IMG/VR virus record: IMGVR_UViG_3300020048_000115
Coordinates: 6,053-70,052 of that record
Strand: one strand, 5' to 3'
Length of the DNA stretch: 64,000 nucleotides
Source: a virus
A model generated the notes under the pieces. It was not told where the DNA came from and searched no databases. It saw only the letters and a program-made list of their open reading frames with translations. The position numbers and the translations under genes were made by a program. Shown here piece after piece: positions 20,073-53,920 of this stretch. How positions within the stretch are numbered: the stretch's first letter is position 1; every line of letters begins with the position of its first letter.

Positions 20073-21340
20073 AGCGCATAACGGATAGCATCAGCCATGT
20101 GAGAGTAGTCGTCATGCTTTGGACGCTCGCGCTGTAAACCCTCTTTGGTATCCCAACGATACTGGTCAAACACAGCTAAGGCATGTGTACAGTGTGGCGC
20201 TACTTTTATGCGGTTTTGAGCTACTAAAGTTTGAGTATACGCAATACCAGGTAAGACGTCTTTTTTAGCTTTAGTAGTTGCTAGGTCGTAGGTGTACGCT
20301 AAGTCCGACGCAAACTGTGCAGCAGCCGAGTCAATAAAGATTGTTTCGACGCCGTGTTTGGCACAAAGCTCATGAAATACTTTAGCATGTTCGGCTGTGG
20401 TTGTTTCATTTTTTAAGTACTCGTCTACAATCCAAAACACATCCGACTCGAAATCGTAGATAATTATTACAAATGCAGTATAATCTCTGTAGCCAGGGTC
20501 ACAGCCAGCAATGGCTTCACCACGTAAACCTTCCGGAGGTTCACAAATGTCAGACACAGCTAGTGAGTAAATTTGACCCTCAAACACTGTAAACGACGCT
20601 AAATACTCTTGTTCGAATTCAGCGCGTGACATGCTACGGCGGGCTTCCGACACATCGGATTCTGACATACGAGTGTTTTCAGTATAGTCAGCCTGCATTG
20701 AAACCCACTCTGGAAAGTTGTTATCAAATCCACGATCCCAGAATTGAGAGAACCAGTTGTTGCGACCACGAGGTGTGGAAATAAATATGGCTTTGGCAGT
20801 GGGTTTGTCCAGGGTAGGTCTTAACGCAACGTTAAATGCCGCCTCACCGTCTTCGCCTAATGCGGCCTCGTCGAATATGATTAGGTCGTAGCTACGACCA
20901 ACACACGAGTCTACTGTGGATAACGAACCCATGCGAATAGTCGAGCCGTTTGATAGCTCAATAATTTTATCCTTTAAGTTATCGCGTGTGACTTCGAGAT
21001 CAAAGTGCTTGATTAGTTTACGTTGTAGTTCAAAACTAATACCCGATAAGTTGTAGTTCGGCGACATGATTAGTACATTAGACCCAGGTACTAGTGAAAC
21101 CAACTGCCCAACAACATTGGCGATATAAGTTTTGCCGAGTCTGCGAGCTAGTGCAGCGCAGACGAATCGGTATTTAGGGTCGTTGACAGCATTAATTAAA
21201 GCGATTTGGGGTCGGTTGATAGTATCGTAGATGCCTAGCAACTTAAGATAATTTGTGATCGGTAATTTAATAAATCTTTTGCTGGCGTCAAACTCCTCAA
21301 TTACATCACAGTTGACATCCGGACGTGAAATAGTTAACAT
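20054..21340 (-). CDS. terL: terminase large subunit (428 aa)
   Basis: Walker A AALARRLGKT and Walker B LIIFDEAA, followed by a C-terminal nuclease-like region. Confidence 0.85.
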   Translation of the reverse strand: MLTISRPDVNCDVIEEFDASKRFIKLPITNYLKLLGIYDTINRPQIALINAVNDPKYRFVCAALARRLGKTYIANVVGQLVSLVPGSNVLIMSPNYNLSGISFELQRKLIKHFDLEVTRDNLKDKIIELSNGSTIRMGSLSTVDSCVGRSYDLIIFDEAALGEDGEAAFNVALRPTLDKPTAKAIFISTPRGRNNWFSQFWDRGFDNNFPEWVSMQADYTENTRMSESDVSEARRSMSRAEFEQEYLASFTVFEGQIYSLAVSDICEPPEGLRGEAIAGCDPGYRDYTAFVIIIYDFESDVFWIVDEYLKNETTTAEHAKVFHELCAKHGVETIFIDSAAAQFASDLAYTYDLATTKAKKDVLPGIAYTQTLVAQNRIKVAPHCTHALAVFDQYRWDTKEGLQRERPKHDDYSHMADAIRYALYTYTL

Positions 21341-21813
21341 TAAACACCGTCTCCAGAGATAAGTCGAGAAATTAAACTCGAGTACTTCGACCCGTCTAGT
21401 CCCTCGTTGATTTGTACGTTGACTTGTTTTGATGGTGCTGTACCGGCCCGGAGCTTTTCCAGCTGAATTTCACGGTCTAGTAAGTCCATTGACATTTTAT
21501 GACTTAGTGAGAGTAATTCCGAAATATCCTTGGTTGACCCAGCTTGAGCTTCTTCGAGTTCAGTGAACTTTTGCTTGATTAAGGCGTCCATGGCCTTGCG
21601 CATTAAAAAGCGGTTATTGTAGCCGGTGTCCATAAACACTGCATCTACATACGCCTTGACTTCGCGACGTTTTAAGATCTCGGTGACAACTTCCACACTT
21701 AAATCCAGTTCATCCGCAACTTTACGTGGATCGTTGAGCTGCAGGTAGCAATTGGCTACTTCTAGGGATTCCGGTGCAATTTGTATGGTTTCTGCGGGTA
21801 GGTTTTGGGTCAT
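21340..21813 (-). CDS. terminase small subunit candidate (157 aa)
   Basis: Lies immediately upstream of terL and overlaps it by 1 nt. Reiterated direct repeats upstream. Confidence 0.45.
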   Translation of the reverse strand: MTQNLPAETIQIAPESLEVANCYLQLNDPRKVADELDLSVEVVTEILKRREVKAYVDAVFMDTGYNNRFLMRKAMDALIKQKFTELEEAQAGSTKDISELLSLSHKMSMDLLDREIQLEKLRAGTAPSKQVNVQINEGLDGSKYSSLISRLISGDGV

Positions 21814-22058: not shown

Positions 22059-22170
22059 CGTGTGGGTGGGTCCATAGGCTTGTATGAAACCTATAGTCTA
22101 CTAACCGCCCTAGTCTTGTGAACCAAGGTATACATAGGGTAAACACCTAGTAAATAATTGTAGACAACCT

Positions 22171-22197
22171 ATAAATTTTGGGTATAATGGATTCATG
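22171..22197 (+). promoter_or_regulatory. early promoter, TGGGTATAAT -10 with ATG 7 nt downstream (leaderless type)
   Basis: tttTGGGTATAATggattcATG. Candidate -35 TAGACA. Confidence 0.5.
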
Positions 22198-22413
22198 ACA
22201 ACGAAAGACACTATGACAATATCTCTGCTGACCTCTTGCCTTGCCCGTTCACTCATCGAGCGTGAGCTGGACTGCTACAAATCTAACATGCGTCGCAAAT
22301 GCTATGACCATGACGTTAGCGTCAAGGCTGACGTTGCTCAGATCATTGAGAACTTAGAATTTGCTCTTGATGAAATCGAAGCTATCCGGTCTGAAAAAAT
22401 CTCTAACCTGTGA
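22195..22413 (+). CDS. early small protein (72 aa)
   Basis: ATG 7 nt after a TGGGTATAAT -10 element. Cys-containing. Confidence 0.5.
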   Translation: MTTKDTMTISLLTSCLARSLIERELDCYKSNMRRKCYDHDVSVKADVAQIIENLEFALDEIEAIRSEKISNL

Positions 22414-22425
22414 TATAATTGCATC

Positions 22426-22659
22426 ATGAACACACTCACTCTCTCTTTCCAAGACTTGAACATCAAGCCCCAAGACTTCAACGCCCAGACCTTTTCAATG
22501 GCACGCGCTGAGATCATCAATAAAGCCTGCGACACTATCATGCATTTTTATTTCACTGATGAGGATGAAATGGAATGCTTGTTTAATGTTGCTGATGCCC
22601 ATGTTGACATGGTGTTGCAAACTGTTACAATTAAAACTGCTGCTTACGATACACACTAA
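22426..22659 (+). CDS. early small protein (77 aa)
   Basis: ATG 6 nt after a TATAAT element. Confidence 0.5.
   Translation: MNTLTLSFQDLNIKPQDFNAQTFSMARAEIINKACDTIMHFYFTDEDEMECLFNVADAHVDMVLQTVTIKTAAYDTH
22598..22627 (+). promoter_or_regulatory. TTGACA-16-TACAAT promoter, copy 1 of an about 65-bp duplication
   Basis: ttgacatggtgttgcaaactgttacaatt. The same element recurs at 22823-22852. Confidence 0.45.
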
Positions 22660-22660
22660 C

Positions 22661-22813
22661 ATGATTAATTTTCTTTTCAAAGAGCGTATTGAAGTAGGTA
22701 CATACGGGTTTACCTCTTATCGTGTAATATATTTCTTTATTTTTCCCGGTATGCCTATCGCTTTTGTTGCTTATCTATTTGTTGTGGGCTGTATCGGTGT
22801 AGGTTGTAAATAA
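22661..22813 (+). CDS. small hydrophobic peptide (50 aa; MINFLFKERIEV...)
   Basis: In-frame internal start of track ORF 22559..22813. Lies downstream of a TTGACA-16-TACAAT promoter copy at 22598-22627. Confidence 0.4.
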   Translation: MINFLFKERIEVGTYGFTSYRVIYFFIFPGMPIAFVAYLFVVGCIGVGCK

Positions 22814-22822
22814 TTAAAGGGT

Positions 22823-22852
22823 TGACATGGTGTTGCAAACTGTTACAATTGA
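22823..22852 (+). promoter_or_regulatory. TTGACA-16-TACAAT promoter, copy 2
   Basis: About 65-bp direct repeat of 22598-22665 with 8 mismatches. Confidence 0.45.
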
Positions 22853-22967
22853 GACTTCAGCTTACGCTACACATTAACATGATTACATTACGCGAAATCA
22901 TCGAGGCGGTTATTCTTGCCGCACTTATTGCTTCTCCCTTTATTGTTTACTTTTGGAACATGAAACC

Positions 22968-23162
22968 ATGAAATACATTTATCTTGAAGGTGCATATGGT
23001 CGCACATATGACAACGGTTGGCAGGCTGAGGCTGATTGGCTAGCGGGTAAGGACTTTAAGATTGTGGATGGCCCTTACTGTAGCATCCGTGATGCTGAGG
23101 CCCTTAAAGAATTGGGTATGATCTGGTTTATGACTAGAGCAATGGACGAATTAGCAATGTAA
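22968..23162 (+). CDS. early protein (64 aa; MKYIYLEGAYGRTYDNGWQ...)
   Basis: In-frame start inside track ORF 22953..23162. A second copy of the duplicated promoter lies upstream. Confidence 0.45.
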   Translation: MKYIYLEGAYGRTYDNGWQAEADWLAGKDFKIVDGPYCSIRDAEALKELGMIWFMTRAMDELAM

Positions 23163-23260
23163 ACTTTTGTTTTCAAATGCAAACCATTGTAATACTTTGG
23201 TTTGCGGCCGCGCCGATTATACCATGTATAATCGCCCCGTGTCAAGGGGTTTTCTCACTT
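23163..23260 (+). repeat. early intergenic cassette copy 1 (hairpin + 21-bp palindrome + GTGTCAAGG box)
   Basis: Hairpin caaacca-ttgtaatactt-tggtttg. Perfect palindrome cgattataccatgtataatcg (23219-23239), then ccgtgtcaagggg. Confidence 0.6.
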
Positions 23261-23327
23261 ATTTTATAGGTGTTTACCCCTAGAAAATAGTTGTTGACGC
23301 TAGGCTAAATCGCGGTATAATAGACTC

Positions 23328-23456
23328 ATGAACACACAATACACTACTAAACAAATCGCAGAATTCATGGCCTTTGCTACTCGCCATGAGTTGCGCTTTA
23401 ACAACACTACAGAATTTAATTCTGCTATTCGTCAATTCTTTATGGTATAATTGATT
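23328..23456 (+). CDS. small protein (42 aa)
   Basis: ATG 6 nt after TATAAT (cggTATAATagactcATG). Confidence 0.4.
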
Positions 23457-23547
23457 TATCAAAACGAAAGGCTCTTATGAGTTTACTGTGCAACCGGATG
23501 CACAATTTAATCCGGTATGTTTCCCCTTAACTTTTTAGGATTTCCCC

Positions 23548-23871
23548 ATGACTACAAAAACCGTGAATTACACCCCTGAGCAAACCTTGAAAATGGTTGC
23601 TGACTATCAATCCGGTGTAACTGTTGAATCTATTGCTGAGGCATTGGGTAAAACTGTTCGCTCTGTTGTTGCTAAACTTTCGCGTGAGAAAGTTTATCAA
23701 GCCAAGACTTATAAAACTAAATCCGGTGATGCGGTAGTTAAAAAAGATGAGTTTGCCGATTATATCGCGCAAGCTCTTAGCCTGAGCGAGAATGATGCGG
23801 AATCACTCACCAAAGCTAATAAGACTGCACTCGCTAAGATTGTGGATTTTATCAAGGCTGAGAAAATGTAA
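23548..23871 (+). CDS. small HTH protein, paralog family A (107 aa)
   Basis: Motif VESIAEALGKTVRSVVAKLSREKVY. One of several paralogs. Terminator follows. Confidence 0.6.
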   Translation: MTTKTVNYTPEQTLKMVADYQSGVTVESIAEALGKTVRSVVAKLSREKVYQAKTYKTKSGDAVVKKDEFADYIAQALSLSENDAESLTKANKTALAKIVDFIKAEKM

Positions 23872-23872
23872 G

Positions 23873-23902
23873 CACTGCAAGGGCGCAAGCCCTTGCTTTT
23901 AT
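23873..23902 (+). terminator. intrinsic terminator
   Basis: gcaagggc-gcaa-gcccttgc, followed by TTTTAT. Confidence 0.55.
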
Positions 23903-24010
23903 ATTAATTAAAAGGATTAAAAATGTCTACTCTGTCTTTATTGTTGGTTTTTGTTGGGTTTCTTGTTATTGTTGCGTTTAAGATGTGGCTTGTAACAAAA
24001 ACTGGCAAAT

Positions 24011-24110
24011 AAACTTTTGTTTGCAATGAAAACCACTGTAATACTTTGGTTTTCAAACGCGCCAATTATACCATGTATAATTGGGCCATGTCAAGGGTTT
24101 TTGCATTTAT
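24011..24110 (+). repeat. early intergenic cassette copy 2
   Basis: Same hairpin. Palindrome ccaattataccatgtataattgg (24063-24085), then ccatgtcaaggg. Confidence 0.6.
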
Positions 24111-24172
24111 TTATTTATGTTGTATTTTTGCACTGACGCGGTTTTTCTGTAAAAATTGGGTATAATCTATAC

Positions 24173-24412
24173 ATGAACACAAAATACACTCTCAAAGATG
24201 CTGAAAAGCTGGTTTCTTGGCTTGGCACTGTGACTTCAATTGTAGGCGCTTTTATGGTTGCTTCGCAAGTTATCTTTTTTGGATATATTGCTTTTATCGT
24301 GGGTTCTGTATCATGGTTAATTGTCGGAATTACTAAAAAAGACAAGCCGCTGATTGTATTAAATGGAACTTTCTTTTTGGCTAACTTATTGGGTTTATAT
24401 AATGTTCTTTGA
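24173..24412 (+). CDS. small membrane protein (79 aa, 2 TM)
   Basis: Leaderless-type start 7 nt after TGGGTATAAT. Hydrophobic. Confidence 0.5.
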   Translation: MNTKYTLKDAEKLVSWLGTVTSIVGAFMVASQVIFFGYIAFIVGSVSWLIVGITKKDKPLIVLNGTFFLANLLGLYNVL

Positions 24413-24483
24413 GATTATTAAATTTGTGTTTTATACTCCACTGGTGGCACTGGTGGCTTTGATTACTTTTATACTGGAATAAT

Positions 24484-24678
24484 ATGACTAATAAAACTTT
24501 TCTTGAGAATCTGCAAACTGAATTGTGGGATATGTACAAAGATGTTAATAATCAGCGGCCGCGTCATTGGACATTGGAACAATGGGATTCTATTGAGTTT
24601 TTAGAAACTCAGCGCGAGTTACTGCTTAATATATTAAATGCAAAAACATTTAATAACTGGACTGTTATAGAATCATGA
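24484..24678 (+). CDS. hypothetical protein (64 aa)
   Basis: ORF translationally coupled to the next gene by ATGA overlap. Confidence 0.4.
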   Translation: MTNKTFLENLQTELWDMYKDVNNQRPRHWTLEQWDSIEFLETQRELLLNILNAKTFNNWTVIES

Positions 24679-25034
24679 TTAAATCCGCTACTGTTAGATT
24701 ATTCGAGAATATCCTGCGAGATGAATTCAAACTAAAATCTACAATACATATTAATAAATGTCGAGTTATTCGTTATGATGGTGATTCTTGTTTTGGTGAT
24801 TATCGAGGTGAATCTATTGGTCGTGGTAAATTCATGCACAAAATCAGAATTGCCACTAGTGAAGTGAAATCAGATACTGATTTATTTGCTACTCTCGCGC
24901 ATGAATATGTTCATGCTTGGCAAATGGAAAAACTGTTCGATTTAAACCATGATACTAAATCAGGGTTTACAAATTGGAAAAATTATTTCAAAACATATTA
25001 TCAAATTGATATTGAATCTATGCAGCCGGACTGA
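24675..25034 (+). CDS. SprT-like HExxH metalloprotease-domain protein (119 aa)
   Basis: LAHEYVHAWQ motif. Paralog of 26348..26728. Confidence 0.5.
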   Translation: MIKSATVRLFENILRDEFKLKSTIHINKCRVIRYDGDSCFGDYRGESIGRGKFMHKIRIATSEVKSDTDLFATLAHEYVHAWQMEKLFDLNHDTKSGFTNWKNYFKTYYQIDIESMQPD

Positions 25035-25135
25035 ATACTTTTGTTTTCAGCCCCAAACAAAACTAATACTTTTGTTTGCGCCAAATTATACCATATAATT
25101 TGCGTTTGTGTCAAGGATTTTTTACTAGGGGTTTT
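25035..25135 (+). repeat. early intergenic cassette copy 3
   Basis: Palindrome caaattataccatataatttg (25072-25092), gtgtcaagga, then ttttcacctatgttgtatttttgcac. Confidence 0.6.
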
Positions 25136-25218
25136 CACCTATGTTGTATTTTTGCACGGATGGTTTTTTGTGCGGTTTTTGGGTATAATCTACTCATACA
25201 CTATGAAAGGCTTTCAAA

Positions 25219-25695
25219 ATGGCAAAAATTTCCCGCGTTAGTATTTATGATATGGACGGTACAATTGTTTGCAGTATGCATCGATACAAAACTATTATTG
25301 ATAATAATGGCGAAAGAATTGATTTGCAATATTGGCGCGAAAATGAGTATCGCGCAATGGATGATGAATTATTGCCATTGGCTGAACAATATAGGGCTGA
25401 TTTGAATGATGAAAACTGTTATGTTATTATTGCTACTGCCCGTGTTTTGCATACCGCTGATAATACATTTATTGCTGACATACTCGGCGAGCCTGATTAT
25501 ATTATTTCCCGCGCTGACGGCGATACTAGCTCAGGCGGTAAATTGAAAATTGCGGGTTTGGCTAAGTTTTTTAATCTAGTTACTTTTCGTGATGCAGAGT
25601 TTACATTTTATGAGGATAATACTACATACTTGAAAGCGGTTTGTGACCGATTCAATATTCGTGGGGTATATGTTCCTTCAAAGCAAGGCCATTAA
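25219..25695 (+). CDS. HAD-superfamily phosphatase (158 aa)
   Basis: HAD motif I, IYDMDGTIV, at the N-terminus. Confidence 0.6.
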   Translation: MAKISRVSIYDMDGTIVCSMHRYKTIIDNNGERIDLQYWRENEYRAMDDELLPLAEQYRADLNDENCYVIIATARVLHTADNTFIADILGEPDYIISRADGDTSSGGKLKIAGLAKFFNLVTFRDAEFTFYEDNTTYLKAVCDRFNIRGVYVPSKQGH

Positions 25696-25778
25696 ATGTT
25701 ATACTATATCCAGCTTTTTATTTTAAGTTATCTATTAGGCGGGTTTATTGGATTTATTTTTAGTTATTGAAAAATAAA

Positions 25779-25803
25779 TTCAAAAAATAATAACCCTTCG
25801 GGG
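25779..25803 (+). terminator. intrinsic terminator (ataacccttcggggttat)
   Basis: GC hairpin with a TTCG loop and a T-run. The same hairpin recurs at 27487-27510. Confidence 0.55.
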
Positions 25804-25826
25804 TTATTTAATAAAATTATATATAT

Positions 25827-26081
25827 ATGGATAAAATAGGCTGGATTGGTTCTTTATTGTTGGCATTATGTGCCGTACCGCAAGCAATAGAATCATATAA
25901 AACAAAATCATCGGCGGGTTTAACATGGGGATTTATTTCCATGTGGTTTGTGGGCGAGATTTGCACTTTTATTTATATTATACCTAAAATGGATTTTCCC
26001 TTATTAGTTAACTATGGCGCAAATATTTGTTTCTTGACAGTTATTATATATTATAAAATTAATCCGAAAAAACCCCTGTAA
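25827..26081 (+). CDS. semiSWEET-like PQ-loop membrane protein (84 aa, 3 TM)
   Basis: GWIGSLLLALCAVPQAIESYKTKS ... IIYYKINP resembles bacterial semiSWEET / PQ-loop proteins. Paralog of 28543..28788. Confidence 0.5.
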   Translation: MDKIGWIGSLLLALCAVPQAIESYKTKSSAGLTWGFISMWFVGEICTFIYIIPKMDFPLLVNYGANICFLTVIIYYKINPKKPL

Positions 26082-26175
26082 TACTTTGGTTTGCGAACAA
26101 AAGTACTTTGTAGTACTTTTGGCGCCAAAATTATACCATATAATTTTGGCCCCTGTCAAGCGGTATTTGCGTTTA
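26078..26175 (+). repeat. early intergenic cassette copy 4
   Basis: Perfect 25-bp palindrome ccaaaattataccatataattttgg (26125-26149), then cctgtcaagcgg. Confidence 0.65.
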
Positions 26176-26197
26176 TTTTCTAGGTGTTTACACCTAA

Positions 26198-26290
26198 AAC
26201 TTTTGTTTTCAAAAGCCCGAGCAAACGAATACCTTTGTTTGCGCCAAAATTATACCACACCCTGTAGAGTTTGTCTATAGGGGTTTACAC
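26198..26290 (+). repeat. early intergenic cassette copy 5 (half-palindrome variant)
   Basis: gcgccaaaattataccacac (half site only), then ggtttacacctatgttgtatttttgcac. Confidence 0.5.
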
Positions 26291-26347
26291 CTATGTTGTA
26301 TTTTTGCACACTTAACTTTTTCGCTGATTTATTGGTATAATAAACGC

Positions 26348-26728
26348 ATGGACAAAAAAGCACTATTAAAGCACATCAGGCTTGAAACTGTAATGATTTG
26401 GGATTCACTTTGTGAATTGTATACTCCTTTGGTTCACTATAATGAACCCAAGATAGAACTAAATCCTTACACTTGGCGCACTGCGGGAAGCTGTTTTCAA
26501 ACTGAAAATGTAATTCAATTGGGTTACAAATTTTTCAAAGCTAAAACAGAATACTTCAATTATATGATAGATGTAATTTTGCCGCATGAAATTATTCATC
26601 AGGCTGATTTTAATTTATTCGGAGAATCAGAAAAAATTTGCGGTCATGGTGAAAATTGGCAAAAAATCATGTTAGAATATGGGCTTGATGCTGACCCGTA
26701 TCACACAATGAAGATTTCTAGAAAATAA
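26348..26728 (+). CDS. SprT-like HExxH zinc metalloprotease-domain protein (126 aa)
   Basis: ILPHEIIHQ followed by CGHGENW. Confidence 0.5.
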   Translation: MDKKALLKHIRLETVMIWDSLCELYTPLVHYNEPKIELNPYTWRTAGSCFQTENVIQLGYKFFKAKTEYFNYMIDVILPHEIIHQADFNLFGESEKICGHGENWQKIMLEYGLDADPYHTMKISRK

Positions 26729-26785
26729 TTCGGGCATTTTGCTCAATATGCGAATTCCGGCATTATCCGGTAATAAGGTTTTATA

Positions 26786-27484
26786 ATGGCTAAAAAACAA
26801 TTCTTTTGTATTCTTGATACTGAAACTACTATTAATGATACTGTGGCGGATTTTGCCATGATTATCGTTGACCGCGAGGGTATTATTCATAATCAATGCG
26901 CGGTATTAGTTGCCGGTCATTATAATAACTTTGAGTTATTCCATGATAAAGCCGCGAATGATATTTGGGGTTATGAGGGTTTGAATAAACGCAAATTTAA
27001 TTATATTAATATGCTTGATTCTGGTACTCGCGTTCTCGCGTCAGTTAATGCAATTAATAAATGGATTAATCAAGCCATTGGTAAATATAACCCACAATTG
27101 ACGGCATATAATCTGGCATTTGATAAATCAAAATGCCTTAATACTGGTATTGATTTGTCGGGTTTTAATTCTGAATTTTGTTTGTGGCAAGCTGCCGTGG
27201 GTAATATCTGCAATAAAAAACAATATCGTCAGTTTGCCTTAGATAATCACGCATTTAATAAAGTTACTGGTGCGGGTAATATGACTTTTCAAACTAATGC
27301 TGAGATTGTATGCGGTTTTATTAATGGTGAATTTATTAAAGAGCCACATACTGCCCTAGAAGATGCGCGAGATTTTGAATTGCCTATTCTCAAAGCTATT
27401 ATTAAAAAGCGAGATTGGAAAGATAATATCAAGCCTTATAACTGGCGCGACTTTCAAACTAAAGATTGGTTTGCCGCTAAATAA
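26786..27484 (+). CDS. DnaQ-like 3-prime to 5-prime exonuclease (DEDDh), 232 aa
   Basis: Exo I motif ILDTETT, Exo II YNLAFD, Exo III HTALEDARD. Confidence 0.7.
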   Translation: MAKKQFFCILDTETTINDTVADFAMIIVDREGIIHNQCAVLVAGHYNNFELFHDKAANDIWGYEGLNKRKFNYINMLDSGTRVLASVNAINKWINQAIGKYNPQLTAYNLAFDKSKCLNTGIDLSGFNSEFCLWQAAVGNICNKKQYRQFALDNHAFNKVTGAGNMTFQTNAEIVCGFINGEFIKEPHTALEDARDFELPILKAIIKKRDWKDNIKPYNWRDFQTKDWFAAK

Positions 27485-27486
27485 AT

Positions 27487-27512
27487 AATAACCCTTCGGG
27501 GTTATTATTAAT
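27487..27512 (+). terminator. intrinsic terminator (duplicate of 25779)
   Basis: aataacccttcggggttatt. Confidence 0.55.
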
Positions 27513-27705
27513 AATTTATGAAATCACTTTATATTATAGCCCTAGTTTTGCACTTACTAGATGATAAGCGTCTAGATACTGTGGCAGATACTAGATTTAC
27601 TTACTTTGATACTACGATTGGCGCATTATATGATTAAACAAGTTTATTATATGCTTTTGATTCTCATTATTGAGATTCTAGTATATCAGAGTATTATTAG
27701 GTGAT

Positions 27706-27810
27706 GTAATACTTGAGTTTGCAAACAAAAGTACGATGTAGTACTTTTGTTTGCGCCAATATTATAACATATAATATTGGGCCGTGTCAAGCATTATTTG
27801 CTAGGTGTTT
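27706..27810 (+). repeat. early intergenic cassette copy 6
   Basis: Perfect palindrome ccaatattataacatataatattgg (27755-27779), then ccgtgtcaagca. Confidence 0.65.
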
Positions 27811-27819
27811 TCCCTTAGA

Positions 27820-27915
27820 ACCTTGGTTCTCAAGGTCTGGCGCAAACGAATACCTTTGTTTGCGCCAAAATTATACCACACGGCGCGCAGGCTGTCAATA
27901 GGGGTTTGCCCCTAT
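27820..27915 (+). repeat. early intergenic cassette copy 7 (half-palindrome variant)
   Basis: gcgccaaaattataccacacggcgcg, then ggtttgcccctatgttgtattttcacac. Confidence 0.5.
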
Positions 27916-28018
27916 GTTGTATTTTCACACAAATAAAAAATAACTTGTTTTTGCTGGGTTTTTCCCTTATAATAGACTCATGGCAGGCAATAGGGCAGGC
28001 CAGAAAAAAGGAAAATTT

Positions 28019-28345
28019 ATGACTAGCAAAACTGTCAATTATACCCCAGAGCAAACCCTGAAAATGGTTTCCGATTATCAATCCGGTGCGACTGTGGAAA
28101 CCATCGCTGAAAACATGGGCAAAACTGTCCGTTCGGTTGTGGCGAAATTGTCACGCGAAAAAGTTTATGTGGCAAAATCTTATGTAACCAAAACGGGCGC
28201 ACCCGTGGTTAAAAAAGACGCGCACGCTGACGCAATCGCGGCAATTTTGGGCCTGAGCGAAGCCGAAGCCGATTCACTGACAAAAGCGAATAAAACCGCA
28301 CTAGAGAAAATTTTCTCTGCGCTGGCGAATTCTCGCCCAATCTGA
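28019..28345 (+). CDS. small HTH protein, paralog family A (108 aa)
   Basis: MTSKTVNYTPEQTLKMVSDYQSG ... AKLSREKVY. In-frame start inside track ORF 27980..28345. Confidence 0.6.
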   Translation: MTSKTVNYTPEQTLKMVSDYQSGATVETIAENMGKTVRSVVAKLSREKVYVAKSYVTKTGAPVVKKDAHADAIAAILGLSEAEADSLTKANKTALEKIFSALANSRPI

Positions 28346-28542
28346 CACAATAGGGCGAAAGCCCTATTATCTGAATATTATCTAAGTAAATTCCCCGAAC
28401 TTGCGGAAAATGTTTAATTACAAATTACTGTCTTTATTAGGGAAAAACCTTTAATATTCAGATAATAGGATTTTTATTATGATTAAAGCTGGACGAATTA
28501 CTTTCAAGTAAGATTTAATATAGATATTGTAAGGATAGTATA

Positions 28543-28788
28543 ATGGAATATATCGGCTGGATTGGCTCAATACTATTTGCAGCCTGTGGAATACCACAGG
28601 CTTATGAATCATATAATAAGGGTAATTCAAATGGCCTTACTTGGGCGTTTCTATTAATGTGGTTTTTTGGTGAGGTTTTAACCTTAATTTATATTATCCC
28701 CAAACTAGATTATCCGCTATTATTTAATTACTCTTGTAATCTAATATGTCTGCTTATTATCTTGAGATATAAAATTAAGCCGCGATAA
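28543..28788 (+). CDS. semiSWEET-like PQ-loop membrane protein (81 aa)
   Basis: GWIGSILFAACGIPQAYESYNKG ... ILRYKIKP. Paralog of 25827..26081. Confidence 0.5.
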   Translation: MEYIGWIGSILFAACGIPQAYESYNKGNSNGLTWAFLLMWFFGEVLTLIYIIPKLDYPLLFNYSCNLICLLIILRYKIKPR

Positions 28789-28797
28789 TATATAATA

Positions 28798-28822
28798 ACC
28801 CGCTTCGGCGGGTTTTATACTA
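28798..28822 (+). terminator. intrinsic terminator
   Basis: aacccgc-ttcg-gcgggtttt. Confidence 0.55.
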
Positions 28823-28823
28823 T

Positions 28824-28935
28824 GTAATACTTGAGTTTTCAACTCGAAACGAAAAGTAGTACTTTCGTTTGCGCCAAAATTATACCATAATTTTGGCATC
28901 GGTGTCAAGGATTATTTGCTAGGTGTTTACACTTA
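28824..28935 (+). repeat. early intergenic cassette copy 8
   Basis: Palindrome ccaaaattataccataattttgg (28874-28896), ggtgtcaagga, then ggtgtttacacttatgttgtttttacgcac. Confidence 0.6.
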
Positions 28936-28942
28936 TGTTGTT

Positions 28943-28957
28943 TTTACGCACTTGGCA
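28943..28957 (+). promoter_or_regulatory. sigma54-type -24/-12 element TGGCACGATTCTTGC (copy 1)
   Basis: Exact match to TGGCAC-N5-TTGC with G at position 7. Confidence 0.45.
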
Positions 28958-28969
28958 CGATTCTTGCGC

Positions 28970-28984
28970 CAGAAAAACCTGGCA
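28970..28984 (+). promoter_or_regulatory. sigma54-type -24/-12 element TGGCACGATTCTTGC (copy 2)
   Basis: Identical 16-mer, 27 bp downstream of copy 1. Confidence 0.45.
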
Positions 28985-29014
28985 CGATTCTTGCTTATAA
29001 TTAAAAATGCATAA

Positions 29015-29082
29015 TTTATAATTATCCAGACGCGAATGATTGTCGTTTACAAATGCAAATGATTCGTATTTGCACCCTGGAT
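29015..29082 (+). repeat. three iteron-like 17-mers GCRAATGAKTSGTMTTT
   Basis: gcgaatgattgtcgttt (29015), gcaaatgattcgtattt (29037), gcgaatgagtcgtatta (29066), with regular spacing of about 22-29 bp. Confidence 0.5.
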
Positions 29083-29175
29083 GCGAATGAGTCGTATTAC
29101 CGCGATTTAGGGTCATGTAGTACTTTTGGGCTATATCAGCACTGGTTTTTAGAACTTTAGTACTACAAAAGTGTG

Positions 29176-29240
29176 CTGCGCCAGTGGAAAACCTTGCGCC
29201 AGTGGAAAAACTCAGAGGTTTCCTGCGCCAGTGGCCCGTC
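29176..29240 (+). repeat. three CTGCGCCAGTGG(AAAA) direct repeats
   Basis: At 29177, 29197 and 29225. Covered only by a spurious ORF. Confidence 0.5.
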
Positions 29241-29311
29241 AAGTGCAAAATCTTGCATGTGGGTTACGCGCCCATTATATAGTGGAAAACCTTGCGTGTC
29301 AAGTAAAAAAT

Positions 29312-29347
29312 TTCTTTATTGAACAAAGTGTTGGAGTTTTGTATAAT
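29312..29347 (+). promoter_or_regulatory. sigma70 promoter TTGAAC-17-TATAAT for the 44-aa gene
   Basis: ttgaacaaagtgttggagttttgtataat. Confidence 0.55.
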
Positions 29348-29374
29348 TGTTTTATCAACAGGAGAGAACCACAC

Positions 29375-29509
29375 ATGACAGACGCCGAATTTTTCGCACA
29401 AATCCAAGAAGACTACTTCCACGAATTTGTGGGAACCGAACTCCGAGAAATTTTCGTGTGTACCGATGCACACGATGAAATTTTTGAATTTGACGATGTT
29501 CCCTTCTAA
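29375..29509 (+). CDS. small acidic protein (44 aa, MTDAEFFAQIQEDYFHEF...)
   Basis: TTGAAC-17-TATAAT promoter and AGGAGAG ribosome-binding site. In-frame within spurious track ORF 29171..29509. Confidence 0.5.
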   Translation: MTDAEFFAQIQEDYFHEFVGTELREIFVCTDAHDEIFEFDDVPF

Positions 29510-29555
29510 TGATATAATAATATCTTAAACAGCGCAGAAACCAACTAAAGGACAT

Positions 29556-29867
29556 ATGATGACTAAAGAAATCAAACAAAACTACACCCCAGCCCAAACC
29601 CTGGATCTCGTTAACCGCTACAAGGCGGGCGAGGCCGTTGAGACCATCGCAGAAGCCCTGGGCAAGACTACTCGCTCAGTGGTTGCCAAACTTTCACGCG
29701 AAGGCGTGTACCAGGCCAAGACTGCGACTAAGGGTCAGGCCCGAGTCAAAAAATCTGAGCTGGTTGACCAACTTGCACACCTCTGTGGTGTTGCTCCAGA
29801 AATGTTTGACTCACTGGAGAAAGCCAACCACGACGTTCTCGAAGCACTGGTTGCAAAAATTGCTTAA
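29556..29867 (+). CDS. small HTH protein, paralog family A (103 aa)
   Basis: NYTPAQTLDLVNRYKAGEAVETIAEALGKTTRSVVAKLSREGVY. Confidence 0.6.
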   Translation: MMTKEIKQNYTPAQTLDLVNRYKAGEAVETIAEALGKTTRSVVAKLSREGVYQAKTATKGQARVKKSELVDQLAHLCGVAPEMFDSLEKANHDVLEALVAKIA

Positions 29868-29892
29868 CCTTAGGGTCAAGAAATTTTATCTT

Positions 29893-29918
29893 GATTTAGA
29901 ATACAAAAACTAGTATAA
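29893..29918 (+). promoter_or_regulatory. sigma70 promoter TTGATT-17-TATAAT (drives the small RNA candidate)
   Basis: ttgatttagaatacaaaaactagtataat. Confidence 0.55.
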
Positions 29919-29924
29919 TAGTTA

Positions 29925-30047
29925 TATAAACAGTCGGGAAGGCAAGAGGGCTAGGGAGCCATTGCCGTTTGATTACCCTCGGCCACAGCCACTAACCAGT
30001 TACTATAAGTACTTATATCTGTGCGACACGAGTGGGCGTCAACGACT
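29925..30047 (+). ncRNA. candidate small RNA (about 120 nt) between promoter and U-tract
   Basis: TTGATT-17-TATAAT promoter at 29893-29918. 5-prime aaacagtcg (29929-29937) pairs perfectly with 3-prime cgactgttt (30034-30042), followed by TTTATTT. No ORF. Confidence 0.4.
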
Positions 30048-30058
30048 GTTTTTATTTA

Positions 30059-30087
30059 CTTGATTGTATAGTTTGTTTACTGTATAA
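30059..30087 (+). promoter_or_regulatory. sigma70 promoter TTGATT-17-TATAAT (drives the large RNA candidate)
   Basis: ttgattgtatagtttgtttactgtataat. Confidence 0.55.
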
Positions 30088-30093
30088 TAGATT

Positions 30094-30826
30094 TATTGGG
30101 TGACAGCGGAAACGGGATTTATCTGTTATGCGTCTTAATTGTGGGGAATACGTTCCGAGCCACAGCCCTTAGCTTCTAGAATTGATTGTTTTGGCTAGGC
30201 ATAGCTTTACAACCTGACACATATACTTGCACGCATGGCTACCTCGGCCGAGGTTTTAAACGCGCTTCTTGCAAGGTACTAAGATCAGCGCGTATTCGCA
30301 AAGCAATCAATTCTAGGTGTTATGAACCCAGATTTCGATCTGGATAACAACTTAATAATAACCGAAGTCTAGTTATTACCTAGTCTATTATGGGTACCTT
30401 CTGAAGATGGCTTGACCCTAAACTAACGCAAAATGTATCCGGTATGCAAACCGTTGTTAGTTTTAAATAAGCCGAAACCCTCATCACACGGCAGCCTTAC
30501 GCGATGTATTCCCATATGTCCAAGGCAGCAGTTGAGGGTCAAGGTGTAGGACTTTAGCCAAGCCTGTTAGCACTGGTGAAAGAACACCTAAAAATACAGC
30601 TATCTGCCAAACCAAGGCTCTGGCCGGCCCCAGGAATGTAGACAAGCGGGATTTGTGAACCCGGCATCGGCTAATCGCTGTTGCGCAAACACGCCAACCG
30701 ACTCTACTAGCGACCTTAATCCGTAACCACAGAGGAAACCTGCACGGATGGTACTAGACAACCATTAAAAAATCTCGAGATTCAACTGCCCGCACGGACT
30801 TGCTCCCGTAGCGGGCTTTTGTTTGT
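30094..30826 (+). ncRNA. candidate large structured noncoding RNA (about 730 nt)
   Basis: No ORF of at least 60 aa in any frame across 29914-31013. TTGATT-17-TATAAT promoter at 30059-30087. Internal long-range inverted repeats (ctagaattgattg at 30176 / caatcaattctag at 30307). Intrinsic terminator at 30788-30826. Confidence 0.4.
30788..30826 (+). terminator. intrinsic terminator at the end of the ORF-free RNA locus
   Basis: gcccgcacgg-acttgctc-ccgtagcgggc, followed by TTTTGTTTGTGTTT. Confidence 0.55.
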
Positions 30827-30940
30827 GTTTAATTTTACACTTAAAAATATTGTGGTGCTGCGCCAAATTATAAGTGGTTAGGCAATTTAACGCAAGTGGA
30901 TTTTTTAACATCTGACCCTAAGCCGAGCTTGCAACACACG

Positions 30941-30990
30941 CAAAAAAGCCGTATATCGTTACAGATATACGGCTTTTGCGCTTTTAAGTT
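30941..30990. terminator. bidirectional terminator flanked by inverted ATCTGACCCTAA elements
   Basis: aagccgtatatc-gttacag-atatacggctt with A-run and T-run flanks. Motif copies at 30909-30921 (plus) and 31024-31036 (minus). Confidence 0.6.
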
Positions 30991-31013
30991 AAATTAAATG
31001 CAATTAAGTCGAT

Positions 31014-31325
31014 TTACGTTGCTTTAGGGTCAGATAGCGCAGTGCTAATCATAACCAAGACGTTTTTGTTGACTTTTTCTAGCGATTCCAGCAATTCTAG
31101 GTCGCAGTCTAGTAATTCAGCAATTTGCTCTATGTGCTCCGACTTTTTCACCGGAATTTCACCACGTTTGTTAACATAAGTCTTTTTCTGGTACACACCA
31201 ACGGAGCTTAGCTTAGCAATCACCGATCGCTCTGGCACGTCCAGCTCCTTAGCTATAACCAAAACTGGCACCTTGTTGGTGTACAGCTCGATTATACGGT
31301 CAGTAATTTCTTTGGTATAACGCAT
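31014..31325 (-). CDS. small HTH protein, paralog family A (103 aa)
   Basis: ELDVPERSVIAKLSSVGVYQKK, same family. A bidirectional terminator lies downstream. Confidence 0.55.
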   Translation of the reverse strand: MRYTKEITDRIIELYTNKVPVLVIAKELDVPERSVIAKLSSVGVYQKKTYVNKRGEIPVKKSEHIEQIAELLDCDLELLESLEKVNKNVLVMISTALSDPKAT

Positions 31326-34528: not shown

Positions 34529-35194
34529 TCAGTCCCATAGTGCCTCGTAGTATTTACCAAATAAACGGAATCCGTTAGAGATTTTGGCTTGCTGTACAGC
34601 CATTGCTGCGTAATCACAAACATAAGTATCTTTTGGGCCTGCAGTCATTTCGTAACTAACTGGATCGCCTTTAGCGTCCAGTTGTTCACTAGGCTTCCAA
34701 ACAATGTCGTGTGTACCACTGTGGTACTGATCTTGCCAAGTGTCATCCACTTTGCAAGCAAAAGCAAAGATCATTTGATCAAGCACCCAGTCCCAACGTT
34801 TGAAGTGGTTGTCGTCCGTATCCCACTCAGACTCTTTTTTGGGTGCACTAGTAGATTTTAGCTCATCTGGAACGTCCTCGTCTGACACACAGGGAGCACC
34901 GTGTTTAGTTGCTTGTAACTGCTTAAGCATTGGTAACACGATCATGGCTAGTGTAGAGTCCATGCCCCAAGTATCGTAAGCATCAATACACACATACTCT
35001 TGACGAGTACGTCGAGCCTCAATCCACTGGCAGGCTCTGGTAAGTAGGGTATCACTACCGTCTTTTTTCTCTGCAAGCCATGTGCCAAACTCATGTACTC
35101 TGGCATCCTCGTGCTTGTCTAACCACCACAGTAGTGCTTCAGCAATCTGGTACGGCCCTACCCAGTTTTTATACGGGCCAATTATTACTTTCAT
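34529..35194 (-). CDS. hypothetical protein (221 aa)
   Basis: Long Trp-rich ORF, coupled to the upstream gene. Confidence 0.5.
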   Translation of the reverse strand: MKVIIGPYKNWVGPYQIAEALLWWLDKHEDARVHEFGTWLAEKKDGSDTLLTRACQWIEARRTRQEYVCIDAYDTWGMDSTLAMIVLPMLKQLQATKHGAPCVSDEDVPDELKSTSAPKKESEWDTDDNHFKRWDWVLDQMIFAFACKVDDTWQDQYHSGTHDIVWKPSEQLDAKGDPVSYEMTAGPKDTYVCDYAAMAVQQAKISNGFRLFGKYYEALWD

Positions 35195-49956: not shown

Positions 49957-51267
49957 ATGTCTTCGATCAATCGCGCTGTGCGTACTCCAGTATTTAATTC
50001 TGTGGGTACGCAAGTATCCAAAATTAATGCCGAACGTCAGCTAAAGCGTATTACCCTAGCAGCCATGCTGTGGGAAAAGCAGTTTTATCTTGATGGTAAA
50101 TCTCACGCTGAATTGGTCAGAGAATTGGTAGCTAAAATTGCTCCTGAAAAGGTCGCTGCTTTAGCTTTGGAAGCCCGTACGAAATTCAAACTTCGTCATG
50201 TGCCTCTGCTGCTTGTTCGTGAACTCGCCCGCAGCGGGAAACTACAAGCTACTGCGTTAACTTCGGTTATCCAGCGTCCAGATGAAATGTCTGAGTTCTT
50301 GTCAATTTATTGGCAAGAAGGCAAAACAGCGGTATCAAACCAAGTTAAAAAAGGCTTAGCGGCTTGCTTTAATAAGTTCTCTGAATACCAGCTTGCCAAA
50401 TGGAATAAAAATAGCGCATCTATTAAACTGCGTGATGTAATGTTCCTTAGCCACCCTAAACCGCAATCAGTTGAACAAACTGAACTCTTTAAACGAGTAG
50501 CGGCTGACACACTTATTATTCCCGACACATGGGAAACACAGCTCTCAGCTGGTGCAGATAAGTGCGAAACTTTCTCCCGTCTAATGACTGAGAAAAAGTT
50601 GGGTGCACTAGCCTTTCTTCGTAACCTTCGCAATATGCGGGACAGTGGTGTGAACACTGATCTGATCCGTAGCTATGCTAGCTCGGTAGATGTTACTAAA
50701 GTTCTGCCTTTCCGATACGTGGCTGCCGCCCGCATCGTGCCAGAATTTGAAGATATGCTAGAGTCGATGATGTTCCGTAGCTTGGAATCTCACGACAAAA
50801 TCCCTGGAAAGACTGTTTTGGTAATCGACGTTAGTGGCTCAATGTTCGGTGCTCCAATCTCACAAAAATCTGATCTAGATCGCTTCGATGCGGCTGCTGC
50901 ACTTGCTATGTTGTGCCGTGAAGTTTGTGAAGAAGTCGAGATTTATAGCTTTAGTGGAGACGCTGTGCGTGTAGCACCTCGTCGTGGATTTGCTCTCCGC
51001 GAAGCAATTTCCGGCTCACAGCAACATGGCGGTACTCAACTGGGTCGTGCCATGGAAACAATCAACAAAGATACTAGCTATACTCGTTGCATTGTGTTTA
51101 CTGATGAACAAAGCTATGATCGTCCAGACGCTCCGCTTGGTAAAGGCTACGTTGTTAACGTAGCGAGCTACGAGCATGGAGTAAATCATCAGGCTTGGAC
51201 TGAGGTTAACGGGTTCAGTGAATCTGTAATCGACTATATCCAAGCACTGGAACGGGAAGCCGTTTAA
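49957..51267 (+). CDS. Ro60/Rsr-like protein (TROVE-like N-terminal domain + vWA domain), 436 aa
   Basis: C-terminal vWA domain with MIDAS VIDVSGSM. N-terminal helical region with a Ro-like QLKRITLAAMLWEKQFYLDG segment. This architecture is characteristic of Ro60 orthologs. Confidence 0.5.
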   Translation: MSSINRAVRTPVFNSVGTQVSKINAERQLKRITLAAMLWEKQFYLDGKSHAELVRELVAKIAPEKVAALALEARTKFKLRHVPLLLVRELARSGKLQATALTSVIQRPDEMSEFLSIYWQEGKTAVSNQVKKGLAACFNKFSEYQLAKWNKNSASIKLRDVMFLSHPKPQSVEQTELFKRVAADTLIIPDTWETQLSAGADKCETFSRLMTEKKLGALAFLRNLRNMRDSGVNTDLIRSYASSVDVTKVLPFRYVAAARIVPEFEDMLESMMFRSLESHDKIPGKTVLVIDVSGSMFGAPISQKSDLDRFDAAAALAMLCREVCEEVEIYSFSGDAVRVAPRRGFALREAISGSQQHGGTQLGRAMETINKDTSYTRCIVFTDEQSYDRPDAPLGKGYVVNVASYEHGVNHQAWTEVNGFSESVIDYIQALEREAV

Positions 51268-53751: not shown

Positions 53752-53790
53752 ATATTTTAGCACACTACTTGCCACTTAACTCATATATGT

Positions 53791-53920
53791 GGAGTAGCCG
53801 TACGCACACCTTCCACGGGTAATCGGGAGCACCCGACATGGGTAGTGTGCTAAGATATGGTTGTATGAAGCCGATAGAAAAGAGTTTAAGACGCGGGTTC
53901 GACTCCCGCCAGCTCCACCA
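53791..53920 (+). tRNA. long tRNA-like element (about 130 nt) with canonical T-arm and CCA end
   Basis: T-arm gcgggTTCGACTcccgc + cagctcc + ACCA. The only 5-prime acceptor partner is ggagtag at 53791, which implies an insertion of about 55 nt or an unusual RNA. Confidence 0.3.

Follow-up and report, generated by a model that had tools for sequence, protein, structure and literature searches.

RESULTS

Layout of the locus

We analysed a 64,000-nucleotide stretch of viral DNA (IMG/VR record IMGVR_UViG_3300020048_000115), referred to here as the window, and in it a region of 586 bp (positions 28789–29374) that holds no credible open reading frame (ORF) and carries two copies of the 15-mer TGGCACGATTCTTGC, a match to the −24/−12 promoter element of sigma-54. 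On the left this region is bounded by an 81-aa PQ-loop gene (stop codon and terminator) and on the right by a 44-codon ORF (Table 1). Two leftward sigma-70 promoters, P_L1 and P_L2, each matching the consensus at 12/12 positions, enclose the two 15-mers (the sigma-54 boxes), an AT-rich tract, three degenerate palindromes, an inverted repeat and three TGCGCCAGTGG units. The region lies inside a block of small genes of the pre-early type, 13 kb upstream of the tRNA cluster, and not at a switch from early genes to an RNA locus, where an initial annotation made from the sequence alone had placed it.

All three repeat families described in that annotation exist. Two of them lie further right than stated, the boxes by about 10 bp (28943/28970; actually 28953/28980) and a set of 17-mers by 17–19 bp (29015–29082; actually 29032–29101). 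The absence of a credible ORF stands for 28789–29374, but the last 44 codons of a 112-aa ORF then taken to be spurious are a conserved gene. The TGCGCCAGTGG repeats are confirmed, with exactly three occurrences in the window, and are clustered beyond chance: with up to two mismatches allowed there are 17 matches versus 8.4 expected, a number reached by 0/100 shuffles.

Conservation and signature of the sigma-54 boxes

Both boxes lie on the + strand, 27 bp apart; they are the only exact copies of TGGCACGATTCTTGC in the window and exact matches to YTGGCACG-N4-TTGCW, so their description as perfect −24/−12 elements holds. The one other exact TGGCAC-N5-TTGC in the 64 kb is intragenic (35073–35087, − strand). 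A position-specific scoring matrix (PSSM) was built from 29 Salmonella sigma-54 sites bound in chromatin immunoprecipitation (ChIP; PMC3844500), which themselves score 15.9–22.7 bits (median 19.0). With this matrix box 2 scores 21.5 bits, the top value among 128,000 window positions and the only one above the training median. A TATAAT at 28996 was considered as part of a sigma-70 promoter overlapping box 2 and rejected, as it has no usable −35 or extended −10 element.

Relatives were collected by scanning IMG/VR with the A2-like protein encoded to the right of the region, which gave 78 loci at 49–77% protein identity. The absence of the boxes from related phages had been named as evidence that would speak against them; about 55–60% of the relatives carry syntenic boxes (exact 15-mer or at most one mismatch), namely 43 of the 78 loci and 42 of 68 distinct sequences, and in these the GG, the TGC and the N5 spacing are fixed. 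The usual slot holds no box, a single one or two 26–27 bp apart, sometimes with an inverted third, while clade L173–L183 has five to seven on both strands; box 1 is the copy kept in single-box relatives. Exact TGGCAC-N5-TTGC is 155-fold enriched at this site, with 100 occurrences in the 36.7 kb of syntenic interval against 13 in the other 738 kb of these loci.

Among 101 distinct instances the information is limited to YTGGCACG-N4-TTGC and is zero in the flanks. There are 33 distinct cores, among which the N5 varies (GATTC, GAATC, GAATT, AGTTC, ACTTT, AATCC and others); such variation is seen in clade L173–L183 and in other phages. The spacer is N5 in 91 boxes and N4 or N6 in none, the GG-N10-GC spacing being strict. 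Variants with one mismatch differ at the first T (T(−27)) or at the first T of TTGC, or have T in place of the C; the GG, the A and the TGC are spared in all of them, which is the tolerance of ChIP-bound Salmonella promoters (PMC3844500). By these sequence criteria a chance origin of the boxes is excluded, and the simplest binder for them would be the host sigma-54 holoenzyme (E-sigma54).

Homology to Repeat Region 3 of phage T5

The 17-mers, which the initial annotation had read as iterons, are spaced 23 and 28 bp from start to start, and their degenerate pattern has 8 matches in the window against 7.3 expected. They are not enriched in the window, and their significance comes solely from comparison with the relatives and with T5. 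They prove to be decayed copies of the T5-type palindrome AAATGAGAATCATTATCATTTGCATT, which relatives carry at 25/26 identity. The palindrome AAATGCGAATGATTCTCATTTGCATT is present in about one-third of the distinct loci, the GCGAATGATTCGTATTT variant of the window 19-mers occurs also in L159, and the window copies share GCGAATGA.

In T5 (AY587007), AATGAGAATCATT cores make up positions 9468–9637, a stretch that comprises copies of direct repeat C together with palindromes E to I. A 26-mer in each of L160, L135 and L127 is 24–25/26 identical to T5 9575–9601, with alignment scores of 42–47 versus 21 ± 2.3 for shuffles (z about 11). A 38-mer of L160 matches 610 cultured phage records, mostly T5-sized and from Salmonella, Escherichia or Klebsiella hosts; among the matches listed it lies at about 9.1–9.7 kb or in the right terminal repeat, and one matched record labels the containing region 'similar to DNA injection stop signal'. 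The point at which T5 DNA is sheared in a blender, which defines the first-step-transfer DNA, lies at about 9618, inside this palindrome cluster, and T5 Repeat Region 3, an untranslated part of the left terminal repeat at the inner boundary of the first-step-transfer DNA, is a candidate for the signal that stops injection (Heusterspreute 1987; Wang 2005; 10.1101/866236).

Since the supposed iterons belong to the T5 palindrome family, the locus is the counterpart of the T5 stop candidate and not an iteron origin. The correspondence of the ORF-free stretch to Repeat Region 3, as read from sequence and gene order, extends to several features. Both are untranslated and dense in repeats, and both lie past rightward small pre-early genes and before converging early genes, with dmp and A2 pre-early genes nearby. 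They share the palindrome family AAATG(A/C)GAATCATT(A/C)TCATTTGCATT, and in both the palindromes adjoin sites for host proteins, which are DnaA boxes in T5 and in one relative, L162. The differences are that sigma-54 boxes stand here where T5 has DnaA-box inverted repeats, that A2 is present in four copies and A1 was not found (21–41 kb), and that the palindromes are degenerate. A sigma-54 box is absent from the homologous region in all three cultured phages checked: T5, Klebsiella phage PWKp9S and Salmonella phage S114. Conversely, the paired DnaA boxes of the T5 IRD'/IRC' repeats are absent from the window, where we found an 8/9 match, TTATCCAGA, at the end of the AT-rich tract, probably due to chance, and no IRD/IRC-like repeat. 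Membership of the window region in a terminal repeat, and a stop function for it, are candidate properties.

The palindromes also resemble binding sites for Fur, whose consensus we take to be GATAATGATAATCATTATC. To this the T5 copies match at 14–16/19 positions, those of the relatives at 14–15/19 and those of the window at 12–13/19, and the first 14 kb of T5 contain 10 stretches matching at 14/19 or better versus 1.1 in shuffles. A2 is a DNA-binding dimer, and the palindromes are predicted to be bound by an A2-like or a Fur-like protein; the same prediction, A2 or Fur, is made for the palindromes of T5 itself. A preprint on T5 by Davison (10.1101/866236) makes no mention of Fur. Unrelated 150-kb myophages of the genus Phapecoctavirus also have the Fur-like palindromes of the T5 stop region (AY587007, 9468–9639), matched exactly over 26 nt, within a non-coding gap of 1.2 kb, for example at 2440–2560 of Escherichia phage Ro121c4YLVW.

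Orientation of the boxes and search for an activator

The nearest box points at the palindrome for 20/22 palindromes, and lies within 40 nt in 16, counts that overstate the number of independent events as many of the relatives are phylogenetically non-independent; the independent lines are the two orientations of the cassette and the unrelated array-bearing phages described below. The pointing holds for cassettes on either strand, + in the main clade and − in L173–L183 and L085. Because it is kept in both orientations, box and palindrome form an oriented unit, and it is the palindrome that is the constant partner downstream of the boxes. In the window and the main clade the 44-aa ORF and the A2-like gene also lie ahead of the boxes. 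In the window, GC content falls to 0.25 immediately after box 2, and the palindromes, the 44-codon ORF and the A2-like gene follow.

No recognizable upstream enhancer specific to the box site was found, and the palindromes upstream of the boxes are a common feature of all the block's intergenic modules. A six-frame scan of the window and about 250 loci for the GAFTGA motif and Walker A motif of bacterial enhancer-binding proteins and for the RpoN box, as marks of an activator or sigma-54 gene, gave a lone match, which lies in a capsid protein. In Pfam and PHROG scans of the window ORFs there was no Sigma54_activat domain, the remaining large ORFs having structural PHROG matches or none. These searches cover about 60% of the genome, and an activator encoded by the host would not show in them.

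Regional order in the relatives

Upstream of the orthologous A2-like gene the elements follow the same order in nearly all 78 loci: a perfect leftward promoter (TTGACA-17/18-TATAAT), module B, the sigma-54 boxes, a slot for a repeat cassette, the palindrome AGTAC-N5-GTACT, GCGCCAGTG units (one to three, always on the + strand), a second leftward promoter, a weaker rightward promoter, the 44-codon ORF and the A2-like gene. The AGTAC-N5-GTACT palindrome is at the matching position in nearly all relatives, and most of them have P_L2 free of mismatches and as far from the A2-like gene as in the window. Two strings that recur in the region, 'GTGTCAAG' and 'ATTATAC', are the reverse complement of the leftward sigma-70 promoter, and the GCGCCAGTGG units are the leftward promoter module minus its −10 element (GCGCC[CATTATAT]AGTGGAAAACCTTGCGTGTCAAG versus GCGCC-AGTGGAAAACCTTGCG). 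A Chi-like role for GCGCCAGTGG was considered and set aside, as it is not over-represented in 144 kb of betaproteobacterial DNA from candidate hosts.

The contents of the cassette slot differ among relatives and may be GGTCAnTTTGTGACT, ATGCTTATATAAGCA, AGTTAGTGAGCACTTACTAAC, AAATTTCACATTGTGAAATT or DnaA boxes. The last are found in L162 (IMGVR_UViG_3300044951_002831), where the slot (5526–5570) has three perfect DnaA boxes (TTATCCACA) and one with a single mismatch (TTGTCCACA); these form two close pairs beside a sigma-54 box and the palindrome, echoing the paired DnaA boxes of T5. No accessory gene was found to track the sigma-54 boxes when ORF clusters from 79 loci (±6 kb) were compared by Fisher tests (best P about 0.006, uncorrected). 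Many contigs end near box arrays or the A2-like gene; the idea that these ends are genome termini was not retained, assembly breaks at repeats explaining them equally well.

Box arrays in other phages

A targeted scan of IMG/VR recovered 35 contigs in which two exact 15-mers lie no more than 30 nt apart, with GC contents of 35–58%. To our knowledge the specificity of sigma-54 is essentially alike in all bacteria; a shared binder specificity of this kind would explain an identical 15-mer in phages of such different composition. Fifteen of the 35 encode an A2-like protein and the other 20 have none in the DNA fetched. Among these 20, at least L100 is T5-like by both TerL and TerS, L243 has the same TerS family, and one contig is 352 kb long.

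The arrays of the 20 contigs comprise 2–15 boxes, mostly three or more, and are non-coding, in gaps of 1.4–2.6 kb at the seven loci measured. Arrays lie, for example, at 9266–9350 in L231, 15–130 in L226, 1–143 in L251, 3562–3780 in L100, 219–930 in L230, 8824–9400 in L058 and 5661–5760 in L222. The arrays are tandem at periods of 17–28 bp or alternate in orientation, and in several cases stand beside terS or terL. The gene next to the array in L100 and L243 is a terS of phrog_3802, the family of the window TerS, and terL is near the array in L245, L058, L060 and L224; in the T5-like relatives L111, L054 and L119 a box pair lies about 300 bp past terS. The literature that we searched neither describes arrays of sigma-54 boxes in phage genomes nor reports enhancer-dependent sigma-54 sites in the control region of a virulent phage.

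Source phage and neighbouring features

By its gene content and order the source phage is a distant, deep-branching member of an uncultured T5-like lineage. Its TerL is 49% identical to that of Vibrio T5-like phages, and the − strand carries, in order, genes for the tape measure, major tail, capsid/protease, portal, TerL and TerS (the last at 21340–21813). After TerS come a block of small + strand genes (22–29.9 kb) and then converging − strand genes, 23 tRNAs and a transfer-messenger RNA (tmRNA), which is the T5 order with the terminal repeat collapsed. Searches of 50,697 phage records by megablast and blastn with the region and by tblastn with the A2-like protein returned matches no larger than a terminator, and so no cultured relative.

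Because it contains a homologue of dmp, the T5 pre-early gene for 5'-deoxyribonucleotidase, the block of small genes is of the pre-early (first-step-transfer) type. Three helix-turn-helix paralogues of 103–108 aa on the + strand and a fourth on the − strand make up its A2-like set; against T5 A2 they align over the full length (hhalign probability 90.6%, E = 1.3e-6), and the precomputed match to PF26822 is weak. A tblastn search of window positions 21–41 kb found no homologue of A1. The block (23548–31325) is built of duplicated modules, with three PQ-loop membrane proteins (24173, 25827 and 28543) and two SprT-like proteins (24675 and 26348). Several + strand genes in 22169–24190 have GGTATAAT only about 7 nt before the ATG (e.g. 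22180–22197, 23313–23330 and 24158–24175) and no Shine–Dalgarno sequence, which suggests that their mRNAs are leaderless.

Table 1. Positions of the ORF-free stretch's elements and of dmp and A2-like genes in the window
Feature	Position	Strand	Remarks
A2-like paralogue	23548–23871	+	
dmp homologue (T5 pre-early, 5'-deoxyribonucleotidase)	25219–25695	+	41% identity over 81 aa, E = 2e-12
A2-like paralogue	28019–28345	+	
Bidirectional intrinsic terminator, CCCGCTTCGGCGGG + T-run	28797–28818		Ends upstream PQ-loop gene
P_L1, perfect leftward sigma-70 promoter	28879–28908	-	TTGACA, 18 bp, TG-TATAAT
Module B, TTATTTGCTAGGTGTTTACACTTATGTTGTTTTTACGCAC	28909–28952	+	Common to other intergenic modules of the block and to relatives
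Sigma-54 box 1, TGGCACGATTCTTGC then GCC	28953–28967	+	
Sigma-54 box 2, (C)TGGCACGATTCTTGC(TTA)	28980–28994	+	Predicted start near 29006
AT-rich tract	28995–29027		About 88% A+T; directly downstream of box 2
Decayed T5-type palindrome, copy 1, GCGAATGATTGTCGTTTAC	29032–29050		
Decayed T5-type palindrome, copy 2, GCAAATGATTCGTATTTGC	29055–29073		Dyad TGCAAAT...ATTTGCA retained
Decayed T5-type palindrome, copy 3, GCGAATGAGTCGTATTACC	29083–29101		
Inverted repeat, TGTAGTACT...AGTACTACA	29116–29167		Window form of AGTAC-N5-GTACT palindrome
Three TGCGCCAGTGG units	29177, 29195, 29224 (29177–29234)	+	
P_L2, perfect leftward sigma-70 promoter	29274–29302	-	TTGACA, 17 bp, TATAAT
Rightward sigma-70 promoter	29319–29347	+	TTGAAC, 17 bp, TATAAT; serves 44-codon ORF and A2-like gene
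44-aa ORF	29375–29509	+	AGGAGA ribosome-binding site; conserved in relatives
A2 homologue (T5 pre-early DNA-binding protein), 103 aa	29556–29867	+	
A2-like paralogue	31014–31325	-	

The −10 element of P_L1 lies within the palindrome GCCAAAATTAT-acc-ATAATTTTGGC (28873–28897), and the terminator that ends the PQ-loop gene is likely also to stop a short leftward transcript from this promoter. P_L1 and P_L2 belong to a set of nine leftward sigma-70 promoters (TTGACA-17/18-TATAAT) in 23245–29302, eight of them with zero mismatches; every gene of the surrounding block is on the + strand. Most of the nine then run into (T)TTGGCGCAAAC..., and P_L1, the only one inspected, continues through hairpins to the bidirectional terminator of the upstream gene. 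This suggests either sinks for RNA polymerase or a family of small RNAs, about 85 nt long and transcribed leftward.

A structured RNA spanning the ORF-free stretch was considered and rejected, since DNA palindromes account for both fold z-scores (−1.35 on the + strand, −2.9 on the − strand). Past the A2-like gene, in a 1.1-kb ORF-free gap and downstream of a TTGATT-17-TATAAT promoter, there is a conserved non-coding element at 30040–30210 (core 30095–30170), possibly reaching the terminator at 30799–30815. In this element the invariant GGGUGACAGCGG ... GCGUCUUAAUUGUGGG ... CCGAGCCACAGCCC flank a hairpin that covaries in 12 relatives (six compensatory pairs). An Rfam search of 28600–31200 in E-value mode returned an rsmX match at chance level and nothing else, and the element is a candidate for a new structured RNA.

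A permuted (two-piece) tmRNA is encoded at 53781–54222, amid the 23 tRNA genes (42.5–57.3 kb), and scores as beta_tmRNA. Its tag, ANDNTYALAA, finds 16 of 18 matches in Burkholderiales or other betaproteobacterial genomes. From the type and tag of the tmRNA, which are weak evidence, the host is probably a betaproteobacterium. Burkholderiales and other betaproteobacteria possess rpoN. An NAD-dependent DNA ligase is divided between two adjoining ORFs, with the adenylation and OB domains in one and the BRCT domain in the other (61512–62465 and 62538–63305), a split also present in T5. A Ro60/TROVE plus vWA protein, resembling the Rsr RNA chaperone, is encoded at 49957–51267 within the tRNA/tmRNA region, and partner Y-like RNAs may lie near its gene. 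The rsr operon of Salmonella is sigma-54-dependent (PMC3844500).

DISCUSSION

The region studied here is homologous to the stop-candidate region of T5, and its boxes are conserved, bear the signature of sigma-54 promoters and are coupled to the palindrome. The reading that we tentatively favour is that the region is the counterpart of the T5 stop region in which the boxes serve as a poised, activator-dependent E-sigma54 promoter; here we infer the binding and firing of sigma-54 and the nature of both the activator and the protein on the palindromes. Our working hypothesis is that the stretch would consist of modular protein-binding sites framed by the two perfect leftward sigma-70 promoters, the two copies of TGGCACGATTCTTGC being −24/−12 boxes for the host sigma-54 polymerase in an optional cassette that replaces the DnaA-box cluster of T5. 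E-sigma54 would dock, chiefly on box 2, as a stable closed complex that would remain silent until remodelled by an ATPase activator. On firing, it would produce a rightward transcript that would start at about 29006 and cross first the AT-rich tract and then the palindromes on its way to the 44-codon ORF and the A2-like gene. An A2-like or Fur-like host protein would occupy the palindromes, which may then be either the operator of the poised promoter or an obstacle cleared by its transcription. The boxes resemble the known sigma-54 promoters of Salmonella and Escherichia coli, such as pspA, glnAp2, hydN and rsr (PMC3844500), in signature, spacing and tolerated substitutions, and box 2 scores on a par with the best natural ones. 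They differ in that the phage copies may be tandem, convergent or inverted, form arrays of up to 15 and lie in the control region of a virulent phage, not before a metabolic or stress operon, and in that no activator gene was found.

Several observations weigh against this hypothesis. T5 is reported to use sigma-70 for all of its gene classes (PMC7472727). About 40% of the close relatives have no boxes and keep the rest of the region, from which it follows that the boxes are an optional cassette and not the core of the locus. Where boxes are present they are not always placed as promoters would be: in clade L173–L183 and in L085 most of them point away from the A2-like gene, and relatives and other phages have convergent pairs with gaps of 3–5 nt and tandem copies with periods of 17–18 bp, spacings so tight that each box cannot hold a holoenzyme or be a separate promoter. 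In the window itself, box 1, with GCC after it, scores 14.2 bits, just under the weakest training site, and the palindrome copies are degenerate, their alignment to T5 not being significant. Finally, the motif scan for an activator or sigma-54 gene was negative, and the host is assigned from the tmRNA.

A second explanation, only slightly less probable, is that the boxes do bind sigma-54 but that it is their occupancy, not transcription, which has been selected. Occupancy could be by closed complexes or by free sigma-54, which can bind DNA alone. On the portion of the first-step DNA that enters last, the bound protein might serve as an anchor or a roadblock, the role proposed for the T5 DnaA boxes; it might block leftward transcription from P_L2; or the boxes might be a decoy that titrates a scarce pool of sigma-54 once phage DNA replicates. 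Arrays too dense for a polymerase on every box are readily understood in this way, for instance those with a 17-bp period and 2-nt gaps in L231 or an 18-bp period in L173–L177, as are the alternating + and − boxes with 3–5 nt gaps in L100, L230 and L011 and, more generally, the occurrence of both orientations at one site. The same applies to the failure to find an activator gene in the window and in the flanks of the relatives. DnaA boxes hold the position of the sigma-54 boxes in T5 and a neighbouring slot in L162, so that in T5, L162 and the window sites for different host proteins share the region, which in the window also holds two zero-mismatch sigma-70 promoters. That the paired 15-mer is identical across 35 IMG/VR contigs of 35–58% GC suggests binding by a universal host protein. 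Against these stand the orientation of the nearest box towards the palindrome in 20/22 cases, which a pure sponge does not need, the presence of just two copies in the window, the ideal promoter-type −12 flanks of box 2 with an AT-rich melting region beyond, and the lack of an experimental precedent in the literature searched.

The decoy version has a parallel in the datA locus of E. coli, a cluster of titration sites for DnaA. We know of no titration cluster for sigma-54, and of none on a phage. Arrays of decoy binding sites (PMC8599769) are a further parallel, and such clusters share with the boxes consensus-quality, non-coding sites for a factor of low abundance that are multiplied by replication; the coupling of box orientation to the palindrome, in contrast, is unexpected for a simple sponge.

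We consider it unlikely that the 15-mer is recognized by a phage protein, with its likeness to sigma-54 sites incidental. The candidates would be TerS, for which the boxes would be a packaging or end-cutting signal bordering the terminal repeat, or an A2-like protein. Arrays often adjoin terminase genes (terS of phrog_3802 in L100 and L243; terL nearby in L245, L058, L060 and L224), the boxes of the window family adjoin A2-like genes, and close repeats in both orientations resemble TerS sites. The R sites of lambda cosB and the pac boxes of SPP1 are such TerS repeats, closely spaced and in both orientations, and like them the boxes are short non-coding repeats that in several array phages stand beside terS. 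However, the boxes of the window are 7 kb from terS, and the same 15-mer is common to phages whose terS PHROGs differ or are lacking, including phages with TerS candidates outside phrog_3802 and, in the DNA fetched, no A2-like gene. T5, PWKp9S and S114 have no box in the homologous region although their terminase is presumably related, 40% of the close relatives are box-free despite having the same genes for TerS and A2, and no gene family within ±6 kb tracks the boxes. The motif is moreover asymmetric, and in which positions it conserves and which it leaves free it agrees exactly with sigma-54 promoters.

An iteron-type replication origin or a centromere-like partition site, as suggested by the initial annotation, is very improbable: short repeats do adjoin an 88% A+T tract and an 8/9 DnaA-box match, phage-specific direct-repeat cassettes occur at this place in relatives, and a promoter followed by an unwinding element is the plan of T4-type origins, but the iterons are decayed palindromes homologous to the T5 stop-candidate region, close relatives have other repeat cassettes or none, and there is no gene for an initiator (Rep), helicase loader or ParA/ParB among the neighbouring ORFs, nor was one for Rep or ParA/ParB found elsewhere in the window or in the flanks of the relatives. 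The origins of T5 lie near the centre of its genome, and its pre-early DNA is not thought to be the first to replicate (10.1101/866236).

The box arrays may have a significance beyond this region. It is conceivable, if on balance doubtful, that they represent an undescribed and widespread phage element that captures sigma-54 or its holoenzyme near genome ends and terminase genes. Their distribution suggests a general, unstudied route by which phages engage or neutralize the sigma-54 machinery of the host.

How injection of T5 DNA stops and restarts is a question that is decades old, and the cis-acting signal for the stop still awaits definition. That the palindromes of T5 are kept here while its DnaA boxes are swapped for perfect sigma-54 sites, with DnaA boxes added in L162, suggests that host DNA-binding proteins are parts of this signal that can be exchanged for one another. 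If the arrays are an element of the kind just described and replace the DnaA-box cluster of the stop region in this lineage, the pause in two-step entry would be set by host proteins that assemble on the entering DNA (DnaA, sigma-54 polymerase and, on the palindromes, a Fur-like protein or A2), and would be released by ATP-driven remodelling or by transcription across the site. Alternatively, the arrays would act as a sponge for sigma-54, silencing the sigma-54-dependent stress and defence responses of the infected cell.

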